DNA of 64,000 bases from a virus, in IMG/VR virus record IMGVR_UViG_3300044811_000050; one strand, given 5' to 3'. The notes under the pieces were generated by a model that saw only the letters and a list, made by a program, of their open reading frames with translations, searched no databases and was not told the DNA's origin. This document shows, piece after piece, positions 2,916-40,218 of this stretch. Positions within the stretch are counted from its first letter, which is position 1; the number at the start of each line of letters is the position of its first letter. A program made the translations under genes and the position numbers.

Positions 2916-3698
2916 ATGACGACCGAGGCCAGCGATTCCGACGCGATCGGCCCACCGGAGCTGCCTGCCAGCCCGGCGCTGCCCGAGGGCAATCCATCGA
3001 CCGCGCAGGCGGAACCGGCGATCGGGGTGGCCACCGTGGTGTCCGGGCTGACCCTGCTGGTCGACGGGCTGATCGCCTTCGGGCTGGTGACCATCACGCC
3101 CGACCAGAAGGTCTACCTGCTGGGCTTCATCGGGCTGATGGCCCCGCTGGTCGTTGGGTTCATCACCCGGGGCAAGGTGTTCTCCCCGGCCACGGTGAAG
3201 GCTCTGATCGACTACTACCAGCGGATGCATCAGGACACCACCAGCCAGCTGATCGCGGCTCGCGCGGAGAACGGCGCGGTGCAGGCGGTGGCCAGCGCGA
3301 TCCAGGCCGTGGTGCCCGCCCCCGCGCCGCCCCCAGAGCCCGCCCAGCCGCCGGCTTCGGCCCAGCCGGTCACCCAGCCCTGGCTGCCGGAGTACGACCA
3401 GTACGAGCCCGCTCAGGCCCCGCCGCCGGTGGAGACTGAGCGTGCTGTGCCACGGCAGATGCCGGTCTACCCGCCGCGCGAGTACTACTACGGCCCGCCG
3501 CCGCCCGCTGAGCAGGTCTACGGCCAACAGGCTTACGGCCAGCAGCAGGGTTACGGGCACGGTCCCTCCGGCTGGGAGCCGCCGGAGCAGAAGAATCGTT
3601 CAGCGGAGGCTGAGCCCCGGCAGGCCGAAACCCGGCAGTTCGACCCCCGCCAGGGCGACCCTCGTAACCCTGGGCGACATGCGGCTGGCAACCAGTAA
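2916..3698 (+). CDS. Holin-like membrane protein with Pro/Gln-rich tail
   Basis: GGAGGAG RBS; two hydrophobic segments followed by RGKVFSP, a pattern typical of actinophage holins; disordered C-terminus. Confidence 0.55.
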   Translation: MTTEASDSDAIGPPELPASPALPEGNPSTAQAEPAIGVATVVSGLTLLVDGLIAFGLVTITPDQKVYLLGFIGLMAPLVVGFITRGKVFSPATVKALIDYYQRMHQDTTSQLIAARAENGAVQAVASAIQAVVPAPAPPPEPAQPPASAQPVTQPWLPEYDQYEPAQAPPPVETERAVPRQMPVYPPREYYYGPPPPAEQVYGQQAYGQQQGYGHGPSGWEPPEQKNRSAEAEPRQAETRQFDPRQGDPRNPGRHAAGNQ

Positions 3699-3818
3699 CA
3701 CGGCGTAGCGAGAAAACTCGTTACCCGAAACGCTTGGTGTCAGGGGTGTGTGGCATTATCTTGGTGATCGGAAGTGAAGCACGCACCACAACGTCGAACC
3801 AGAGACGGGATGATCACC

Positions 3819-4508
3819 ATGACTGAGCCCACCGCACAGCCCACCTCGCCCACCACCGACCTCGTTGCCACCGGCGGCAAGCTGGCCGCCGTCGCGGGCC
3901 AGACCATCCGGGGTTTCCTCGCCGGCTTGTCCAAGGCGGACGCCAAGGCGACCGAGCGGCCCGAGCCGGTGCTGCCGGCGCCGGTGGTCGTGACCGATGA
4001 CCAGCGCAAGGCGTTGGATGCCCTGGCGGACGCCACCGCCGCGCTGAAGTGGCCCACCAAGCGGCGCGCGCTGAGCGCGGCCGAGCGGACCGCCCTCGCG
4101 GAGTACCTGGTCACGGTCAAGGAAGTCGACAAGCTGGTGACGCAGGCCAAGGAGAGCTTGCGGACCGCGCTGTTCAACGACCTGGACGTGGAGGCCGAGC
4201 TGGACGGTACGGCCGATGAGAGCACCCCGCGTGACGGCAAGGGCTTCTACCTGCTCGCGGCGACCCGCCCCGGCTACGCCCGGGAGGTCCGTTCCGGCAC
4301 CCCGTCGGCGGACGCCCAGGAGCTGGCCCAGCTGGACGTCGAGGGTGCCATCAGCCACGAGGACTACCTCGCGGCGACCAAGCAGGTCCGGGTGGTCTCC
4401 GAGGAGGGCTTCCTGCGCCTGGTGGCCCGCAAGCCCCACCTGCTGCCGGCGCTGCGCCGGGCGGTGAAGCTCTCCCGGGCCGCCAGCGTCTCGCTGAAGC
4501 TCAAGTAA
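3819..4508 (+). CDS. Hypothetical phage protein
   Basis: Long ORF with genome-typical codon usage. Confidence 0.7.
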   Translation: MTEPTAQPTSPTTDLVATGGKLAAVAGQTIRGFLAGLSKADAKATERPEPVLPAPVVVTDDQRKALDALADATAALKWPTKRRALSAAERTALAEYLVTVKEVDKLVTQAKESLRTALFNDLDVEAELDGTADESTPRDGKGFYLLAATRPGYAREVRSGTPSADAQELAQLDVEGAISHEDYLAATKQVRVVSEEGFLRLVARKPHLLPALRRAVKLSRAASVSLKLK

Positions 4509-34968: not shown

Positions 34969-35010
34969 ATGACAAAAAGCCTTGCCGCTGGCAGGGTGGT
35001 CGTGTAGCTT
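34969..35010 (+). promoter_or_regulatory. Repeat promoter/operator element driving the tRNA array
   Basis: ATGAC-AAAAAGCCTTGCCGCT-GGCAG-N10-TAGCTT. Confidence 0.7.
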
Positions 35011-35087
35011 GATCTAGCGGGACCGACGGCGCGGACGCTGCCAGAGCACGAAACCTGGTTGCGTCCGCTCCGTAAGCTCGCACACAA

Positions 35088-35161
35088 CGGGACGTAGGCC
35101 AATTTGGCAGGCCACCGGTTTCGGGAACCGGAGACTGGAGGTTCGAGTCCTCCCGCCCCGA
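35088..35161 (+). tRNA. tRNA-Pro(CGG)
   Basis: Cloverleaf; CCGGT-TTCGGGA-ACCGG; TTCGAGT. Confidence 0.9.
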
Positions 35162-35172
35162 CGCTAGAGCAA

Positions 35173-35256
35173 GGCCCTGTGGCGAAATTGGCAGACGCGC
35201 TGGATTCAGGATCCAGTTCCCGGGAGGGAGTGCGGGTTCAACCCCCGCTGGGGTCA
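35173..35256 (+). tRNA. tRNA-Leu(CAG)
   Basis: CTGGA-TTCAGGA-TCCAG; long variable arm. Confidence 0.9.
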
Positions 35257-35274
35257 CGCGAGACAACTGAACAC

Positions 35275-35346
35275 GCCGATTTAGCTCAGCGGAAGAGCGG
35301 CTGCCCTACAAGCAGCGGGCCGGGAGTTCGATCCTCTCAATCGGCA
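35275..35346 (+). tRNA. tRNA-Val(TAC), C at position 33
   Basis: GCTGC-CCTACAA-GCAGC; acceptor GCCGATT/AATCGGC. Confidence 0.85.
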
Positions 35347-35391
35347 CTAGGGTCATACGCGCCCTATGTTTCATGACAACTCCATCCACTT

Positions 35392-35464
35392 GGGGCCTTA
35401 GCTCATCTGGTAGAGCGCCTGTTTTGCAAACAGGAGGCGCCCGGTTCAAGCCCGGGAGGTTCCA
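35392..35464 (+). tRNA. tRNA-Ala(TGC)
   Basis: CCTGT-TTTGCAA-ACAGG; G3-U70 pair. Confidence 0.92.
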
Positions 35465-35563
35465 CGAGGTGCTGCGCTGGGCAGTACATGCCAGCGGCCA
35501 ATACGACCACTCCTCCACGGAGGGTGGCGTCGGCCGTATCCCCCTCGGGGGAACCCAGCCCCC

Positions 35564-35637
35564 GTCCTCGTAGCTCAGACGGATAGAGCGTCAGTTTCCG
35601 AAACTGAAGGCCGCAGGTTCGAGTCCTGCTGAGGGCA
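35564..35637 (+). tRNA. tRNA-Arg(CCG)
   Basis: TCAGT-TTCCGAA-ACTGA. Confidence 0.92.
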
Positions 35638-35706
35638 CAACGGCCGAGGTGGGCGGCCGGTCTCCTCCGTTGGAGAGGACAAGGGTCTCAGACTCCCCAC
35701 CACCAC

Positions 35707-35781
35707 GCCTCCGTAGCTCAGCTTGGTCAGAGCGGCGCACTAGTAATGCGCGGGTCCGGGGTTCGAATCCTCGCGGTGGCT
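35707..35781 (+). tRNA. tRNA-Thr(AGT)
   Basis: GCGCA-CTAGTAA-TGCGC; canonical D and T arms. Confidence 0.88.
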
Positions 35782-35856
35782 CGTTCCGTAGCCGGTGCCC
35801 TGGGCGCCGGCTTCCAGCCATCGGCCCTGATGGTGCGGAGTACCAGGGCCATCCAT

Positions 35857-35930
35857 GGGGTACTAGCTCATCTGGCTAGAGCGTCTCTCTTCCAAAGAGA
35901 AGGTGCGGGGTTCGAGACCCCGGTGCCCCT
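35857..35930 (+). tRNA. tRNA-Gly(TCC)
   Basis: TCTCT-CTTCCAA-AGAGA; U73. Confidence 0.88.
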
Positions 35931-35955
35931 CAAACGCTCGTGCGCACGAGCGTCA

Positions 35956-35999
35956 GCCGGGTCGTGGGTTCAATTCCCTGCTGGTTGCAGCGACTCGGC
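35956..35999 (+). ncRNA. Candidate minimal tRNA-elbow mimic (T-loop then D-like loop)
   Basis: GCCGGGTCG/CGACTCGGC stem enclosing GGG-TTCAATT-CCC and TGC-TGGTT-GCA. Confidence 0.4.
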
Positions 36000-36006
36000 G
36001 CTCCAA

Positions 36007-36080
36007 GACCTCGTAGATCAATCTGGTAGATCACCTGGCTCTCAACCAGGAGGCTGCGGGTTCAAATCCCGTCGGGGTCA
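36007..36080 (+). tRNA. tRNA-Glu(CTC)
   Basis: CCTGG-CTCTCAA-CCAGG. Confidence 0.92.
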
Positions 36081-36102
36081 CATACGACCGCAAGGGGGTG
36101 AT

Positions 36103-36525
36103 ATGCCGTACAAGGATCCAGCTCAACAGCTCGCTTACCAGAACGCTTGGATGCAACGGCGGCGACAGGAATGGATTGAGGAGAACGGTCCATGTGTGGA
36201 CTGTGGCTCCCAGGAAGATCTTACCGTTGATCACAAAGATGCTAGCGAGAAAATCACTCATCGTGTTTGGAGTTGGTCTCAGCCTCGTCGTGATGAAGAG
36301 CTAGCTAAGTGTGTGGTGAGGTGCGAGTCCTGCCACAAGGTGAAGACCCGGTTGAATCGGGAGACTGGAGGCGGGCAGAGTAGCGCCTCGATTGAGGTTG
36401 CTAGGGAGATTCGCCGGCTGTATGCCAGAGGTGGCGTGAGGCAGACGGATCTGGCTCGACAGTTCAGGATTTCTCAGCGAGCCGTTTCGGATATTATTAC
36501 GAATCGTCGCTGGGTAGAATTTTGA
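36103..36525 (+). CDS. HNH homing endonuclease with C-terminal HTH, inside tRNA array
   Basis: CVDCGSQEDLTVDHKD..KCVVRCESCHKVKT; QTDLARQFRISQRAVSDIITNRRW; GGGGTG RBS. Confidence 0.88.
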   Translation: MPYKDPAQQLAYQNAWMQRRRQEWIEENGPCVDCGSQEDLTVDHKDASEKITHRVWSWSQPRRDEELAKCVVRCESCHKVKTRLNRETGGGQSSASIEVAREIRRLYARGGVRQTDLARQFRISQRAVSDIITNRRWVEF

Positions 36526-36532
36526 TACGCAC

Positions 36533-36610
36533 AGCGCAGTTGCTCTGATGGATAGGGGCGGCCTGCCTTTCAAGCAGGATACGACGCGGGTTCGAGTCCC
36601 GTCTGCGCTA
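36533..36610 (+). tRNA. tRNA-Glu(TTC), atypical
   Basis: CCTGC-CTTTCAA-GCAGG; A1-U72; enlarged D and variable regions. Confidence 0.8.
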
Positions 36611-36690
36611 CGAAGGGTCTCGCGCTGGGCGCGACCTGTTCGGCCCGGGGTTCGCGCCTCCACCGAGCTGGCCAGTCGGGACCCTGTTAC

Positions 36691-36764
36691 GGGCATGTAG
36701 CTCAGCTGGTTAGAGCGCGTCGCTGATAACGACGAGGCCGCAGGTTCAAATCCTGCTGTGCCCA
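36691..36764 (+). tRNA. tRNA-Ile(GAT)
   Basis: CGTCG-CTGATAA-CGACG. Confidence 0.93.
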
Positions 36765-36776
36765 CGCAAGGAACAC

Positions 36777-36848
36777 ACCCCGGTAGCTCAGAGGAAGAGC
36801 ATCCGCCTCTTAAGCGGAGGGTCGAGATTTCGAAATTCTCTCGGGGTA
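36777..36848 (+). tRNA. tRNA-Lys(CTT)
   Basis: TCCGC-CTCTTAA-GCGGA; T53-T61 mismatch. Confidence 0.85.
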
Positions 36849-36899
36849 CTAGCGGCACGGTCAGCTGCTTGCTGACGGCAGAGATCGCGCCGCTTTCAC

Positions 36900-36972
36900 G
36901 TCCTGCTAGCTAAATGGATACAGCGCCTGATTACGGATCAGGAGAGTGGGGGTTCGAGTCCCTCGCAGGACA
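36900..36972 (+). tRNA. tRNA-Arg(ACG)
   Basis: CCTGA-TTACGGA-TCAGG. Confidence 0.92.
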
Positions 36973-36976
36973 CTTT

Positions 36977-37051
36977 GCCTCCGTAGCTCAGTCCGCGCAG
37001 AGCCACGTGCTTTTACCACGAGGGTCGGGGGTTCGAATCCCTCCGGGGGCA
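36977..37051 (+). tRNA. tRNA-Lys(TTT), atypical D loop
   Basis: CGTG-CTTTTAC-CACG; D loop lacks GG. Confidence 0.8.
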
Positions 37052-37056
37052 CGCAA

Positions 37057-37140
37057 GACCTGGTGGCGTAATTGGCAGGCGCGCCGGATTCAAGCTCCGG
37101 TGTCCGTAAGGACGTGTGGGTTCAACTCCCACCCGGGTCA
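37057..37140 (+). tRNA. tRNA-Leu(CAA)
   Basis: CCGGA-TTCAAGC-TCCGG; variable arm GTCC-GTAA-GGAC. Confidence 0.9.
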
Positions 37141-37153
37141 CGCAGCACATTAT

Positions 37154-37228
37154 GGGAGCGAGCGCAGGCTGAGTCGACTGGTCTCCAAAGCCGGTTCGTG
37201 CGGGGTTCGAATCCTCCCGCTCCCGCCA
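37154..37228 (+). tRNA. tRNA-Trp(CCA), atypical D arm
   Basis: CTGGT-CTCCAAA-GCCGG; encoded CCA. Confidence 0.8.
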
Positions 37229-37229
37229 T

Positions 37230-37301
37230 TCCGGTGTAGCTCAGCGGCAGAGCCCTCGATTGTTAATCGAGTACGCGTAGGTTCGAATCCTTCCACCGGA
37301 G
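37230..37301 (+). tRNA. tRNA-Asn(GTT)
   Basis: CTCGA-TTGTTAA-TCGAG. Confidence 0.92.
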
Positions 37302-37303
37302 CT

Positions 37304-37380
37304 GTGAGTGAAGCCGAAGGAGACGAGGCGCCGGGTTGTGGACCCGGTCGAAGCGGAGGCAGGTTCCGTCACTCACCCCA
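37304..37380 (+). tRNA. tRNA-His(GTG), non-canonical T loop
   Basis: CCGGG-TTGTGGA-CCCGG; T loop GGCAGGT; C73; encoded CCA; no G-1. Confidence 0.8.
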
Positions 37381-37381
37381 C

Positions 37382-37460
37382 GCCGACGCGCATTGGCGAG
37401 CAAAGCGGACTGTAACTCCGTGGCCTTCGGGCCTTGCAGGTTCGACTCCTGACGGCGGCA
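37382..37460 (+). tRNA. tRNA-Tyr(GTA), atypical D arm
   Basis: GCGGA-CTGTAAC-TCCGT; variable arm GGCC-TTCG-GGCC. Confidence 0.82.
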
Positions 37461-37473
37461 CGCAAGATCACAT

Positions 37474-37549
37474 TAGGCAGCGGGTTGCCGGCATCCCATC
37501 CTGGTTCTGAGCCAGGGCCACGTAGGTTCGAGTCCTACCTGCCTAGCCA
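37474..37549 (+). tRNA. tRNA-Gln(CTG), atypical
   Basis: TCCTGG-TTCTGAG-CCAGGG; TAGGCAG/CTGCCTA; encoded CCA. Confidence 0.82.
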
Positions 37550-37550
37550 A

Positions 37551-37622
37551 TCTCCCGTGATGCAATTGGCAGCAGAGCGGTTTTTGGTACCGAGGATCCT
37601 GGTTCGAGTCCAGGCGGGAGAA
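37551..37622 (+). tRNA. tRNA-Gln(TTG)
   Basis: CGGT-TTTTGGT-ACCG; TCTCCCG/CGGGAGA. Confidence 0.85.
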
Positions 37623-37710
37623 CGAGAGGAGCGGGGTGAGATGAGGGGGGCCCGCCGCGACGACTAGGGCAGACCGCGAGGGCTGTCGAACCGGCTGAGG
37701 TCGTCAACAT

Positions 37711-37748
37711 GGAAGCGTGGCCGAGAGGCCTAAGGCAGCGGATGCTAA
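37711..37748 (+). pseudogene. 5' half of a canonical tRNA-Ser(GCT), truncated at the anticodon loop
   Basis: GGAAGCGTGGCCGAGAGGCCTAAGGCAGCGGATGCTAA with no matching 3' half; HNH starts 10 nt later. Confidence 0.7.
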
Positions 37749-37757
37749 GATTGGCTC

Positions 37758-38222
37758 GTGTCAGCAGGATCAGAGGCAGTAGAGCGGTTCCGAGCCAGAC
37801 GGCGCGCTGAAGCCAAGGCCGTGCTCGGGGGTCGATGTCAGGGTTGCGAGACTCAGGAGGATCTGGAGTTTCATCACGTCGACCCTGCAACGAAGCTGTT
37901 CTCGATTAGTTCGGGCCTCCAGAAGTCCAGGGAGGTCTTCTTCGCGGAGGTGGCGAAGTGCCAACTCCTGTGTACCGACTGCCATGCCGAGGAGACCCGG
38001 AATGGCTACCGCCTGACGTGGGCGGTCGTGGACGAGATCCGATCCCTGGTCGGTCTCACGCAGGTAGAGATTGGTCGCCGGTACTGCCTACACCAGACAA
38101 CGGTGGGTCAGATCCTGAGCGGCCGTAGATGGAATGACCGGCATAGGCGAGCCAGCCCGACTGCTGATCGGGTCATCTGGGAAACTGGATGTGTAGGTTC
38201 AACTCCTACTCATTCCGCGTAG
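37758..38222 (+). CDS. HNH homing endonuclease with C-terminal HTH; ORF reads through tRNA-Ser
   Basis: CQGCETQEDLEFHHVDP..KCQLLCTDCH; TQVEIGRRYCLHQTTVGQILSGRRW. Confidence 0.85.
   Translation: MSAGSEAVERFRARRRAEAKAVLGGRCQGCETQEDLEFHHVDPATKLFSISSGLQKSREVFFAEVAKCQLLCTDCHAEETRNGYRLTWAVVDEIRSLVGLTQVEIGRRYCLHQTTVGQILSGRRWNDRHRRASPTADRVIWETGCVGSTPTHSA
38131..38217 (+). tRNA. tRNA-Ser(GCT), atypical, overlapping HNH ORF
   Basis: GGAATGA/TCATTCC; GCCCGA-CTGCTGA-TCGGGT; variable arm ATCTGG-GAAA-CTGGAT; G73. Confidence 0.82.
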
Positions 38223-38231
38223 TACGACAAT

Positions 38232-38317
38232 GGAAGGTACCGACCAACAGGTGGTCACCCGGCTTCGAAACCCGGTGGCGGGGGCAAACCCCGGGCGTTC
38301 AACTCGTCTACTTTCCG
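38232..38317 (+). tRNA. tRNA-Ser(CGA) with probable 8/4 fold
   Basis: GGAAGGTA/TACTTTCC; GACC/GGTC; TTCGAAA loop; variable arm CGGGG/CCCCG; GGCG-TTCAACT-CGTC. Confidence 0.78.
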
Positions 38318-38320
38318 CAA

Positions 38321-38419
38321 GGACGTCCGAGGGTTCGACACCCTCCACACACGCTGCGCGCGGCGTGTCCACCCCGGGTCCGTACACCCCGGGAGTGAGC
38401 CCCGGGTAGGGGGTCGTCC
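38321..38419 (+). ncRNA. Candidate circularly permuted tRNA-like RNA (YrlA-like topology)
   Basis: GGACG/CGTCC outer stem; T arm first, closed acceptor-like domain, D arm CCCC-GGGTA-GGGG last. Confidence 0.5.
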
Positions 38420-38424
38420 GTCTT

Positions 38425-38495
38425 GTCGCTGTGGCCGAACGGCTAGGCCCACGCCTGCAAAGCGTGTCACCGGGGTTCGACTCCCCGCTGCGACT
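38425..38495 (+). tRNA. tRNA-Cys(GCA)
   Basis: CACGC-CTGCAAA-GCGTG; U73. Confidence 0.9.
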
Positions 38496-38541
38496 CTGGT
38501 CCACCCCGAGAGTCCTTCGGGATGCAGGGTTGGACCTTCAA

Positions 38542-38613
38542 GGTTCCGTAGCTCAGGGGTAGAGCATCCGCTTGTCACGCGGAAGGTCGAGGGTTCGAAA
38601 CCCTTCGGGATCG
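38542..38613 (+). tRNA. tRNA-Asp(GTC)
   Basis: TCCGC-TTGTCAC-GCGGA; G73. Confidence 0.92.
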
Positions 38614-38614
38614 C

Positions 38615-38693
38615 TGCGGCGTAGGGAAGCTCGGTCCATCCCGTCGGCCTCATAAGCCGAAGATCGTCGGTTCGAATCCGACCGCCGCTACCA
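38615..38693 (+). tRNA. tRNA-Met(CAT), initiator-like
   Basis: 1:72 mismatch, GCGGCG acceptor, TCGGC-CTCATAA-GCCGA, encoded CCA. Confidence 0.88.
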
Positions 38694-38694
38694 A

Positions 38695-38770
38695 GGGTCT
38701 GTAGCTCAACTGGCAGAGCACCGGTCTGAAAATCCGGAGGTTGGACGTTCGATTCGTCCCGGTCCCACCA
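38695..38770 (+). tRNA. tRNA-Phe(GAA)
   Basis: CCGGT-CTGAAAA-TCCGG; encoded CCA. Confidence 0.9.
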
Positions 38771-38837
38771 GGAATCCTTGTTGGAGTGCCGGAGGCATGA
38801 GTTAATGCTCTTGGCTTCGACCCCATGGAGGAAACAC

Positions 38838-39674
38838 ATGCCCCGATTCCGTCGGTTTCTGGCGCTCATTGCGGCGCCATTAATAGCCTTGACTTTGACC
38901 GCCCTTGTTGCCCCGGCTGCTTTCGCCGCTGACGAAAAACCCGGCATTGCCTTCGGTGCCCCGTGTGCCCAGGTCCAGATCATCGTCATCCCGGGCAGCC
39001 ACGAGACCAAAGAGTTGACCAAGATGGACAACGCCGCGAAGGGTGTCCTGGTCAACGTGGTCAGCACCCTGGAGGAGAGGTACCAACGCAAGGTCCGGGC
39101 GCACTACATCGGCTACCCGGCGAAGATCGCGTCGATCATCAACATCGGCAGCCAGAAAGATCCGATCGTGACGGTCAGCTGGGACTACACCCAGAGCAGG
39201 GCGAAGGGCTACCAGGCCACCTGGATGACGTTGAAGTACTACCGCAAGCAATGCCCGGCCACGAAGTACATCCTGACCGGGTACTCGCAGGGCGCGCACA
39301 TCGCGGGCGACCTCACCGCGACCATCTCGAAGGAGAACCAGCCGATCCCAGCCAGCTCGCTGATCTCGGTGCGGCTGCTCGCGGACCCCGCGCGCACCGC
39401 GTCCTTCTCCCGGCTGGTCGGGATGGGTACCGGCGGTAACGGTGGCGTGCTCGGGCACCGCACCTTCGGCTCCCTGAACAACCGGGTCACCGAGTACTGC
39501 GTCAAGGGGGACGCGATCTGCGACTTCACCCTGCGCAACCTGGTGAACTCCGCCGCTAACGGGGGTGGCACGCACACCCAGTACGACGGCACCTACGTCC
39601 CGGGCACGCAGACCACGATGACCATGCGGATGAAGGCCGACATCATCGCCGACGTGCTGAACGCTCGGCTCTAG
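38838..39674 (+). CDS. Secreted cutinase-family serine esterase
   Basis: GGAGG RBS, signal peptide AFA-A, CPATKYILTGYSQGA, LLADP, CVKGDAIC, HTQY. Confidence 0.9.
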   Translation: MPRFRRFLALIAAPLIALTLTALVAPAAFAADEKPGIAFGAPCAQVQIIVIPGSHETKELTKMDNAAKGVLVNVVSTLEERYQRKVRAHYIGYPAKIASIINIGSQKDPIVTVSWDYTQSRAKGYQATWMTLKYYRKQCPATKYILTGYSQGAHIAGDLTATISKENQPIPASSLISVRLLADPARTASFSRLVGMGTGGNGGVLGHRTFGSLNNRVTEYCVKGDAICDFTLRNLVNSAANGGGTHTQYDGTYVPGTQTTMTMRMKADIIADVLNARL

Positions 39675-39680
39675 AGTGCC

Positions 39681-39710
39681 GGCGCGAGGGGGTTTCGGCC
39701 TCCTCGCGCC
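39681..39710 (+). terminator. Hairpin after cutinase (terminator or processing stem)
   Basis: GGCGCGAGGGGG-TTTCGG-CCTCCTCGCGCC. Confidence 0.55.
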
Positions 39711-39716
39711 ATGCTC

Positions 39717-39789
39717 GCCCCTGTAGCTCAGCGGACAGAGCTGTCGCCTTCTAAGCGAAAGGTCGCAGGTCCGAATCCTGCCGGGGGCA
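39717..39789 (+). tRNA. tRNA-Arg(TCT)
   Basis: TCGC-CTTCTAA-GCGA; T loop TCCGAAT. Confidence 0.88.
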
Positions 39790-39921
39790 CGGTCTGAATA
39801 GCTCGGGACTGGCGTGCAACCGCCCGGGTGATGGTCAGATGCGGTATCCGTGAGGACCGTGGCTAGGGCCGACCCGATGCACCGGGGCGGCCCTGGTCGG
39901 TATGTGGATGGAGTTGTCGGG

Positions 39922-40218
39922 TCAGCGGTTCCAGCTGCCCCACCAGCCGTGGTGGTTGTCGCCCCACCAGCCGTGGTGGTGACCGTGGTGGTGACCGTGG
40001 TGGTCACCGCAGTCGTCCCTCCAGTCGTCGTGCCAGTCGTTCCTCCAGCACCGGCGGTTCCAGTCGTCGCTGGTCTGCACGACGCTGGCGAGCACGACCG
40101 GGCTGGAGGTGACCGTCGGCGCGCTCGGCGTGGCGGCCACGGCCGGCGCTGCGGTGGCGAGCCCGCCGCCCAGCAGCGCTGCGGTGCTCGCGGCGGTGAC
40201 CAGCATTCTGGTGATCAT
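39922..40218 (-). CDS. Small secreted His/Trp-rich protein
   Basis: AAGGGG RBS on minus strand, signal peptide, DDW and HHG repeats. Confidence 0.7.
   Translation of the reverse strand: MITRMLVTAASTAALLGGGLATAAPAVAATPSAPTVTSSPVVLASVVQTSDDWNRRCWRNDWHDDWRDDCGDHHGHHHGHHHGWWGDNHHGWWGSWNR

Follow-up and report, generated by a model that had tools for sequence, protein, structure and literature searches.

The window, by which we mean the whole 64-kb stretch of DNA analysed here, is part of a ~157-kb contig from an uncultured phage with a GC content of ~67%. Its proteins include DnaE, DnaB, a helicase, a class F sortase and a cutinase-like esterase; the best identity of the DnaE to cultured phages is no more than 31%, and megablast revealed no cultured-phage relatives of the region 37300-38800. 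A tRNA array extends over positions 35088-39790, in which ARAGORN called 23 tRNAs at the default setting and 25 at a relaxed setting, and two paralogous HNH genes lie within it (36106-36525 and 37758-38222). The present study concerns the surroundings of the second HNH gene, all features of which lie on the + strand. The last intact array member on the 5′ side of this element is tRNA-Gln(ttg) (37551-37623; called by ARAGORN, 51 bits with the Rfam tRNA model). It is followed by an orphan 5′ half of a tRNA-Ser(GCT) (37711-37748), a 9-nt spacer reaching from the TAA of the anticodon loop to the start codon (37749-37757), an HNH endonuclease ORF encoding 154 aa (37758-38222), and a complete tRNA-Ser(GCT) that is located inside the 3′ part of this ORF (38131-38217). 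The next array member is a deviant tRNA-Ser(CGA) (38232-38318), which was called by ARAGORN only at a lowered threshold and scored 28.5 bits with the tRNA-Sec model; its orthologue was called at 5475-5560 in L001, a related contig described below.

Besides this tRNA-Ser(CGA), tRNA-Trp(cca) (37158-37228) and tRNA-Tyr(gta) (37382-37461) were also called by ARAGORN only at relaxed thresholds. No tRNA-His was called in the window; L001 has a tRNA-His(gtg) between its tRNA-Asn and tRNA-Tyr. Between tRNA-Ser(CGA) and tRNA-Cys lies a GC-rich element of ~99 nt (38321-38419), which falls in an alignment gap in L001 and was at first read as a permuted tRNA-like RNA. A match to YrlA in the window (38645-38746) was weak, with 28 bits against a threshold of 69 bits. 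At 3783-3860 and 6617-8266 of L001, a tRNA 3′ part (T arm, 3′ strand of the acceptor and CCA) is directly followed by a complementary 5′ part; this permuted order recalls the tRNA-like modules of Y RNAs, and a TROVE (Ro60-like) protein is encoded on the same contig. A gene for a secreted esterase of the cutinase family (LysB-like; 38778-39671) is situated between tRNA-Phe and tRNA-Arg(tct) within the window's array, which suggests a mycolic-acid-containing actinobacterial host. Within the array, no promoter- or terminator-like sites were found above chance.

The HNH endonuclease and its tRNA-encoded tail

The HNH ORF starts with the GTG at 37758, which is the first start codon 3′ of an in-frame TAA (37746-37748), and ends with a TAG (38220-38222) within the 3′ trailer of the tRNA, at the same position as in L001. 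Residues 8-83 (37779-38006) constitute the HNH catalytic/zinc domain, which matched PHROG 4234 (E 1.5e-18) and was modelled by AF2 with a pLDDT of about 76-89; the match to Pfam HNH (PF01844; E 0.016) was under the cut-off of that model. Seven residues (C27, C30, H40, D42, C68, C72, and H76), representing the Cys pairs and the His/Asp of the zinc-bound beta-beta-alpha metal motif, were invariant across six aligned members of the family. Cluster C mycobacteriophages are among the nearest cultured matches of this domain; scanning IMG/VR with a single protein gave no match, and a sequence search of the PDB gave nothing useful. Residues 94-124 (38037-38129) form a predicted helix-turn-helix DNA-binding domain that ends in RRW, as indicated by weak Pfam matches to HTH_3 and HTH_31, with model helices at residues 102-109 and 113-121. 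Over codons 1-124, the identities to L001 at the three codon positions were 0.77, 0.90, and 0.60, respectively, the third positions being the most diverged; the protein is under purifying selection and appears functional.

The remaining 30 codons, from W125 to A154 (38130-38219), are encoded by the tRNA gene. Residues 1-124 were confidently folded in the AF2 model, whereas the pLDDT was below 50 at residues 125-137 and 139-154, and the tail is predicted to be disordered. Homologues that end before a tRNA do not have the tail, and the paralogue HNH#1 and P0003 both end 3-4 residues past the R(R/T)W motif.

An orphan half of a tRNA-Ser(GCT) precedes the HNH gene

The fragment at 37711-37748 covers positions 1-38 of a tRNA-Ser(GCT) and is not accompanied by a 3′ half; one nucleotide has been lost ahead of its TGCTAA. 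It comprises the acceptor strand, U8 and G9, the D arm, the 5′ strand of the anticodon stem, and a loop ending in GCTAA, the last three letters of which are the in-frame TAA upstream of the GTG. The results confirmed the sequence-only reading that a tRNA-Ser 5′ half ends with GCTAA at 37748 and that the HNH gene starts at 37758. In IMG/VR, the first 18 nt of the orphan always form the beginning of a complete tRNA-Ser gene (18 of the 18 matches outside the HNH family). Compared with its best tRNA-Ser match (L005), the orphan is identical at positions 1-20 and 22-31, with one substitution in the D loop; beyond position 31, a further substitution and the loss of 1 nt immediately precede TGCTAA(G), the motif after which the similarity ends. 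Exact searches of IMG/VR with a 26-nt pattern from the orphan and with a 23-nt pattern from the embedded tRNA gave no match. A 3′ acceptor strand matching the orphan (CGCTTCC, + strand) is absent from its vicinity. The acceptor strand of the orphan could also pair with CG(C/G)TTCC in the codons for ERFR, perfectly in L001 and with one mismatch in the window; this complementarity was judged coincidental, because no T arm lies between the two and the motif is conserved as protein.

The spacing of 9 nt between the loop TAA and the start codon is exact in the window, in L001, and in two more distant contigs (L020 and L021), although the sequence of the spacer is not conserved. The distance between tRNA-Gln(ttg) and the orphan is 87 nt in the window and 3 nt in L001. 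Between these two contigs, 32 of the 38 positions of the orphan are identical (84%), against 66% at synonymous sites (P ~0.01 in one post hoc test). Such conservation above synonymous sites, as judged from this comparison, would not be predicted for a plain decaying scar, and may tentatively be attributed to the use of the orphan as homology to the intact tRNA-Ser genes of recipients.

A complete tRNA-Ser(GCT) is embedded in the HNH reading frame

The tRNA at 38131-38217 (ARAGORN call tRNA-Ser(gct) at 38131-38218) is of type II, is the sole tRNA-Ser(GCT) in the array, and has no encoded CCA. Its first base is the second base of the codon for W125, which is the W of the RRW region, so that the tRNA lies entirely within the ORF, whose TAG begins 2 nt past the discriminator base. 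The fold given by ARAGORN is a cloverleaf with C8 and C9, a 3-bp D stem, an anticodon stem of six pairs including one G-U, a 7-bp variable arm, and G73; the long variable arm and the GCT anticodon in a 7-nt loop are traits of a type II tRNA-Ser. Both the start of this tRNA in the W codon, with its C8/C9 and 6-bp anticodon stem, and the continuation of the ORF through all of it to 38222 had been noticed at the outset and were borne out. In Rfam, only the tRNA-Sec model was matched, with 35.5 bits, under its gathering score of 47 bits. The embedded tRNA is deviant, having C8 and C9 in place of U8 and R9 and missing the Rfam tRNA threshold.

When the 28 pairs of the fold were compared with L001, 98.2% of the cells were paired. 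Both bases had changed in four pairs, of which two belong to the anticodon stem and one each to the variable arm and the T stem; slid controls gave 0-1 such pairs, and only two sequences were compared. These compensatory changes indicate that the embedded tRNA is under selection at the RNA level and is kept as a functional tRNA. In addition, a block of 34 nt (38127-38160 in the window, 5370-5403 in L001), which starts 4 nt ahead of the embedded tRNA, at the end of the RRW codons, and takes in about its first 28 nt, has 100% identity in the two contigs, while the flanking DNA is ~80% identical. This block hints at an additional constraint, which could be dual coding or a protein-binding site.

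The same layout in two further lineages

L001 and L002, which are separately deposited assemblies (Logan, ENA records), encode a protein (P0001) with 74% identity to the window HNH and the same 154 codons. L001 shares with the window the orphan half, the 9-nt spacing, the embedded tRNA, and the position of the stop codon. A second lineage (L020-L022, P0002) has 63% identity in the HNH domain, and its C-terminal DNA-binding domain is unrelated. Nevertheless, it likewise shows a tRNA-Ser 5′ fragment followed by TGCTAA, 9 nt, and the ATG of an ORF whose frame extends across a tRNA-Ser(gct). The junction of TGCTAA, 9 nt, and a start codon was thus found in three lineages with differing 5′ halves. 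In L020, the embedded tRNA is followed after 5 nt by another tRNA-Ser(gct) (3586-3676), an imperfect one in which the anticodon stem is mismatched and the 5′ part is similar to the orphan that precedes the HNH gene.

The sequence-only reading had proposed to look in relatives for intact ancestral alleles, and none was found: no relative carried an intact tRNA-Ser(GCT) at the window's array position, for which reason we infer both the empty site and the target. L024 and L025, which have a distant array resembling that of L020, show tRNA-Leu(cag) and tRNA-Ser(gct) separated by 4 nt; among close relatives, no allele of the Ser site lacking the HNH gene was found. A search for more relatives based on the sortase returned only contigs of 1.6-2.7 kb, which are too short to reach the Ser site.

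Orphan tRNA 5′ fragments upstream of other HNH genes

To survey the family, the 130 nt 5′ of each start codon were compared with tRNA 5′ ends by anchored blastn-short, with the reverse complement as control. A nhmmer profile of tRNA 5′ parts was too insensitive, missing even the orphan of the window, and anchored blastn-short was used in its place. The results showed fragments of at least 30 bits in 10 regions on the coding strand and in none of the reverse-complement control, the maximum of which was 28.2 bits; the orphan of the window had the highest score of all HNH-upstream regions (54 bits). Four of the loci (L109, L177, L118, and L083) have clean, truncated tRNA 5′ parts abutting the start codon, and in three others (L047, L132, and L171) the fragment is paralogous, in decayed form, to the 5′ part of the same tRNA that is overlapped by the ORF. 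In the window, the acceptor strand of the orphan (GGAAGCG) differs from that of the embedded tRNA (GGAATGA), and by this sequence comparison a model in which the cassette duplicates the 5′ part of the same tRNA would fit the window locus less well than L047, L132, and L171. L001 carries a second HNH gene (3860-4354), which shares 24 nt with tRNA-Lys(ttt) and is preceded by an orphan tRNA 5′ fragment; this fragment is closer to the acceptor strand of the window's tRNA-Lys(ttt) than to that of L001's own.

Overlap with the downstream tRNA is the norm in the HNH family

The family set comprised 160 further loci with relatives of the HNH domain, from which 154 non-redundant closed ORFs were analysed. 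Loci with tRNAs accounted for 106 of the 154 ORFs, and 71 had a tRNA on the same strand within 150 nt downstream. Among these 71 tRNA-adjacent ORFs, 53 (75%) overlap the downstream tRNA. The overlap is therefore the norm in this family, and the window locus is its extreme form. In 16 ORFs the stop codon coincides with tRNA positions 8-10 (the conserved U8 A9 G/A10), nine ORFs contain a whole tRNA, and eight end 0-10 nt before the tRNA. In L048, an ORF of the HNH family (1989-2753) is open across three consecutive tRNAs, namely Lys(ctt), Leu(caa), and Gln(ctg).

The passage of the ORF through a whole tRNA calls for no explanation of its own. In the frame used by the window, no stop codon is present in 56% of 655 tRNAs and in 45% of type II tRNAs; about half of the tRNAs are stop-free in this frame, and full run-through is therefore a coin flip. 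In agreement with this base rate, 7 of 14 relatives in the window's frame run through the whole tRNA. The presence of a tRNA half and a complete tRNA exceeds chance, but the open frame across the tRNA does not. Over all frames, run-through of a whole tRNA is if anything rarer than expected, with 9 cases observed against a naive expectation of 20.8, and the placement of stop codons may therefore be non-neutral. The frames of the overlapping ORFs were distributed as 15/24/14, which is not different from uniform (p = 0.18). The HNH tree was largely unresolved, and a single Ser-associated clade was neither supported nor rejected by it; the resolved clades each track one type of downstream tRNA (Asn, Glu, or Tyr).

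Transfer of tracts between tRNA arrays

The arrays of L020 and L021 are 78-86% identical except for a tract of 1283 nt with 99.4% identity. This tract extends from 3 nt 5′ of the orphan as far as the end of tRNA-Ile(gat), and the upstream context differs between the two contigs. Such a tract bears the signature of homing, in which flanking DNA would be co-transferred with the nuclease gene. In the lineage of the window and L001 the evidence for co-transfer is weaker: tRNA-Ser(gct) (81%) and tRNA-Cys (86%) are the most similar of the 24 shared tRNAs, the other 22 being 58-76% identical.

The other HNH gene of the window (36106-36525) lies between tRNA-Glu(ctc) and tRNA-Glu(ttc), is 38% identical in the core to the HNH at 37758, and stops 7-8 nt before tRNA-Glu(ttc). 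Because the two tRNA-Glu genes of L001 are 69 nt apart without an HNH gene, the two contigs represent an occupied/empty pair at this site. Relatives at the Glu-Glu site in L024 and L031 overlap tRNA-Glu(ttc) by 10-16 nt. Conversely, the site of L001's Lys(ttt) HNH gene is empty in the window, where tRNA-Arg(acg) and tRNA-Lys(ttt) are 3 nt apart. The similarity of the tracts, the presence and absence of HNH genes, and the tracking of one tRNA type by a clade are, at the sequence level, as would be predicted from co-conversion via a site-specific homing endonuclease. It is because the orphan travels with the tract that it is to be seen as an inherited scar and not as evidence of a fresh hit in the window genome.

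Discussion

We consider it probable that an HNH homing gene broke a tRNA-Ser(GCT), that an allele downstream replaces its function, that the resulting tract has spread, and that the run-through of the ORF is incidental. An ancestral cassette would have inserted itself into a resident tRNA-Ser(GCT) where the anticodon loop ends on its 3′ side, with the target and the order of events presumably as given here. The 5′ half of the resident gene would then have survived as a dead fragment and its 3′ half would have been lost during gap repair, while a distinct tRNA-Ser(GCT) allele immediately downstream would now supply the function. The tract, consisting of the orphan half, the HNH gene, tRNA-Ser(GCT), and adjacent tRNAs, would move between related phages through recombination triggered by the nuclease, and the orphan half may act as left-hand homology to the intact tRNA-Ser genes of recipients. 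The HNH ORF lacks a stop codon ahead of the downstream tRNA and, like those of most relatives, simply continues into it; the tRNA of the window is stop-free in this frame, so translation would continue through its 87 nt to the TAG 2 nt beyond. The initial proposal of homing into a tRNA with functional replacement is thus retained in its main part, with the split after the anticodon loop, the HNH gene 9 nt further on, and a sole complete tRNA-Ser(GCT) that is maintained as RNA, and was given up as regards a fresh hit, given that the orphan travels with the tract.

If the array were one precursor RNA, each transcript would yield either a mature tRNA-Ser or a translatable HNH mRNA and not both, under the presumed co-transcription and competition from processing. 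Since the stop codon lies beyond the tRNA, RNase P cleavage at 38131 would leave a non-stop HNH message, a consequence that follows logically from the arrangement of the two genes. It is conceivable, though in our opinion doubtful, that the overlap evolved as a control of this kind, a generalised form of the limit on nuclease expression suggested in the initial reading. With the stop codon in or beyond the tRNA, RNase P would destroy the HNH message, the nuclease would be made only from the rare unprocessed precursor, and tmRNA tagging would act on truncated products; in addition or alternatively, the overlap would lock the selfish gene to a useful tRNA and thereby prevent its clean deletion. 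The overlap in 75% of the tRNA-adjacent members, the sharp peak of stop codons at positions 8-10 (16 cases), and the scarcity of ORFs that end just before the tRNA (eight within 0-10 nt) are in favor of such a control, as are the conservation of the layout between the window and L001 and its recurrence in L020. The lack of promoter- or terminator-like sites above chance in the array is compatible with one precursor, and homing nucleases are toxic if overexpressed, as is the case for SegB (PMC13096335). However, the frames of the overlaps do not differ from uniform and run-through in the window's frame equals the base rate, and the overlap could be a by-product of cassette recombination into tRNA 5′ regions, comparable to the microhomology between segB and tRNA-Tyr in T6 (PMC13096335).

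A second alternative, that the orphan is an unrelated tRNA pseudogene from a rearrangement of the array and that the HNH gene landed beside it later by chance, is very unlikely. Phage tRNA arrays do carry deviant and decayed tRNAs, and several tRNAs of the window were called only at relaxed thresholds; but the identical junction (TGCTAA, 9 nt, start codon) recurs in three lineages with different 5′ halves, coding-strand fragments directly upstream of relatives were found in 10 regions against none in the control, and the L020/L021 transfer tract begins at the orphan. Even less credence can be given to an intron, of group I or another type, that interrupts a tRNA-Ser and harbors the HNH ORF, or to a split tRNA joined in trans. 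The anticodon loop, where the break lies, is the site of group I introns in bacterial tRNAs, and HNH ORFs occur in phage introns. Nevertheless, there is no 3′ exon, CGCTTCC being absent nearby on the + strand; the tRNA after the start of the ORF is complete, with an acceptor stem of its own that is not complementary to the orphan; no intron family was matched in 35000-40000 at E values up to 10; and the whole interval is filled by the ORF. That an assembly or sequencing error created the long ORF and the real stop codon follows RRW, as might be suspected of a contig from an uncultured phage, can practically be dismissed, since the ORF of a relative from other samples likewise comprises 154 codons and stops at the same place despite 20% nucleotide divergence, and the frame is fixed by the tRNA sequence itself.

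The probable history set out above, breakage by a homing gene with replacement by a downstream allele, belongs to a kind of event that is known, as both homing endonucleases in tRNA clusters and genes split by them have been described. [quoted passage not shown] The window locus resembles SegB in having a nuclease gene between tRNA genes, and the signs of co-conversion described above parallel both T4 SegB (PMC2330249) and the repeat units of T6 (PMC13096335). In contrast, SegB is a GIY-YIG enzyme that recognises a motif in the T arm, whereas the nuclease of the window is an HNH enzyme and the break is at the anticodon loop. Neither an orphan tRNA half nor an ORF through a tRNA is reported as a stable natural state in the SegB papers (PMC2330249; PMC13096335), and the window has both.

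Homing endonuclease genes have also split host genes into working pieces, as in the fractured genes with split inteins (PMC2677866). These have in common with the window a selfish nuclease gene inside a formerly continuous gene, the function of which is preserved. The two cases differ in that both halves of a fractured gene are functional and are rejoined at the protein level, whereas one half is dead in the window and a separate complete tRNA serves. The mobE gene in the nrdA gene of Aeh1 is another homing gene that splits a host gene. Homing endonucleases of phage tRNA clusters have recently been shown to help in the escape from tRNA-cleaving defences.

HNH genes occur in the tRNA arrays of mycobacteria and mycobacteriophages and next to cyanobacterial L-arrays; they are the protein genes most widely present in such arrays and have been proposed to diversify tRNA repertoires (PMC5966550; PMC8421152). 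A term search of these two papers revealed no mention of an ORF-tRNA overlap, of stop codons on tRNA positions 8-10, or of orphan 5′ fragments (PMC5966550; PMC8421152). In the literature searched, we came across no description of a family-wide overlap of ORF and tRNA, of stop codons coinciding with tRNA positions 8-10, or of recurring orphan 5′ fragments.

A further-reaching proposal, which we put forward tentatively and would not expect to hold in full, is that the HNH family has made the tRNA overlap part of its biology. The position of the stop codon within or past the tRNA, often on the universally conserved U8-A9-G10, would be one element of it; maturation by RNase P would yield a non-stop mRNA and throttle a toxic enzyme, the gene would be welded to a needed tRNA, and the orphan would be kept as a homology arm for the invasion of intact tRNA genes.

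The locus and its relatives indicate that breakage of a tRNA gene by a cassette at the anticodon loop need not cost the function if this is maintained by a second allele, and tracts that move between arrays as blocks would explain the reshuffling of phage tRNA repertoires. The reading frames of this HNH family mostly terminate within the tRNA that follows. Should this overlap have no effect on nuclease expression, it would be a neat but ordinary scar; if it couples tRNA processing to nuclease expression, it would represent a compact bacterial counterpart of the tRNA punctuation in mitochondria, and a selfish nuclease would be restrained in a new way.
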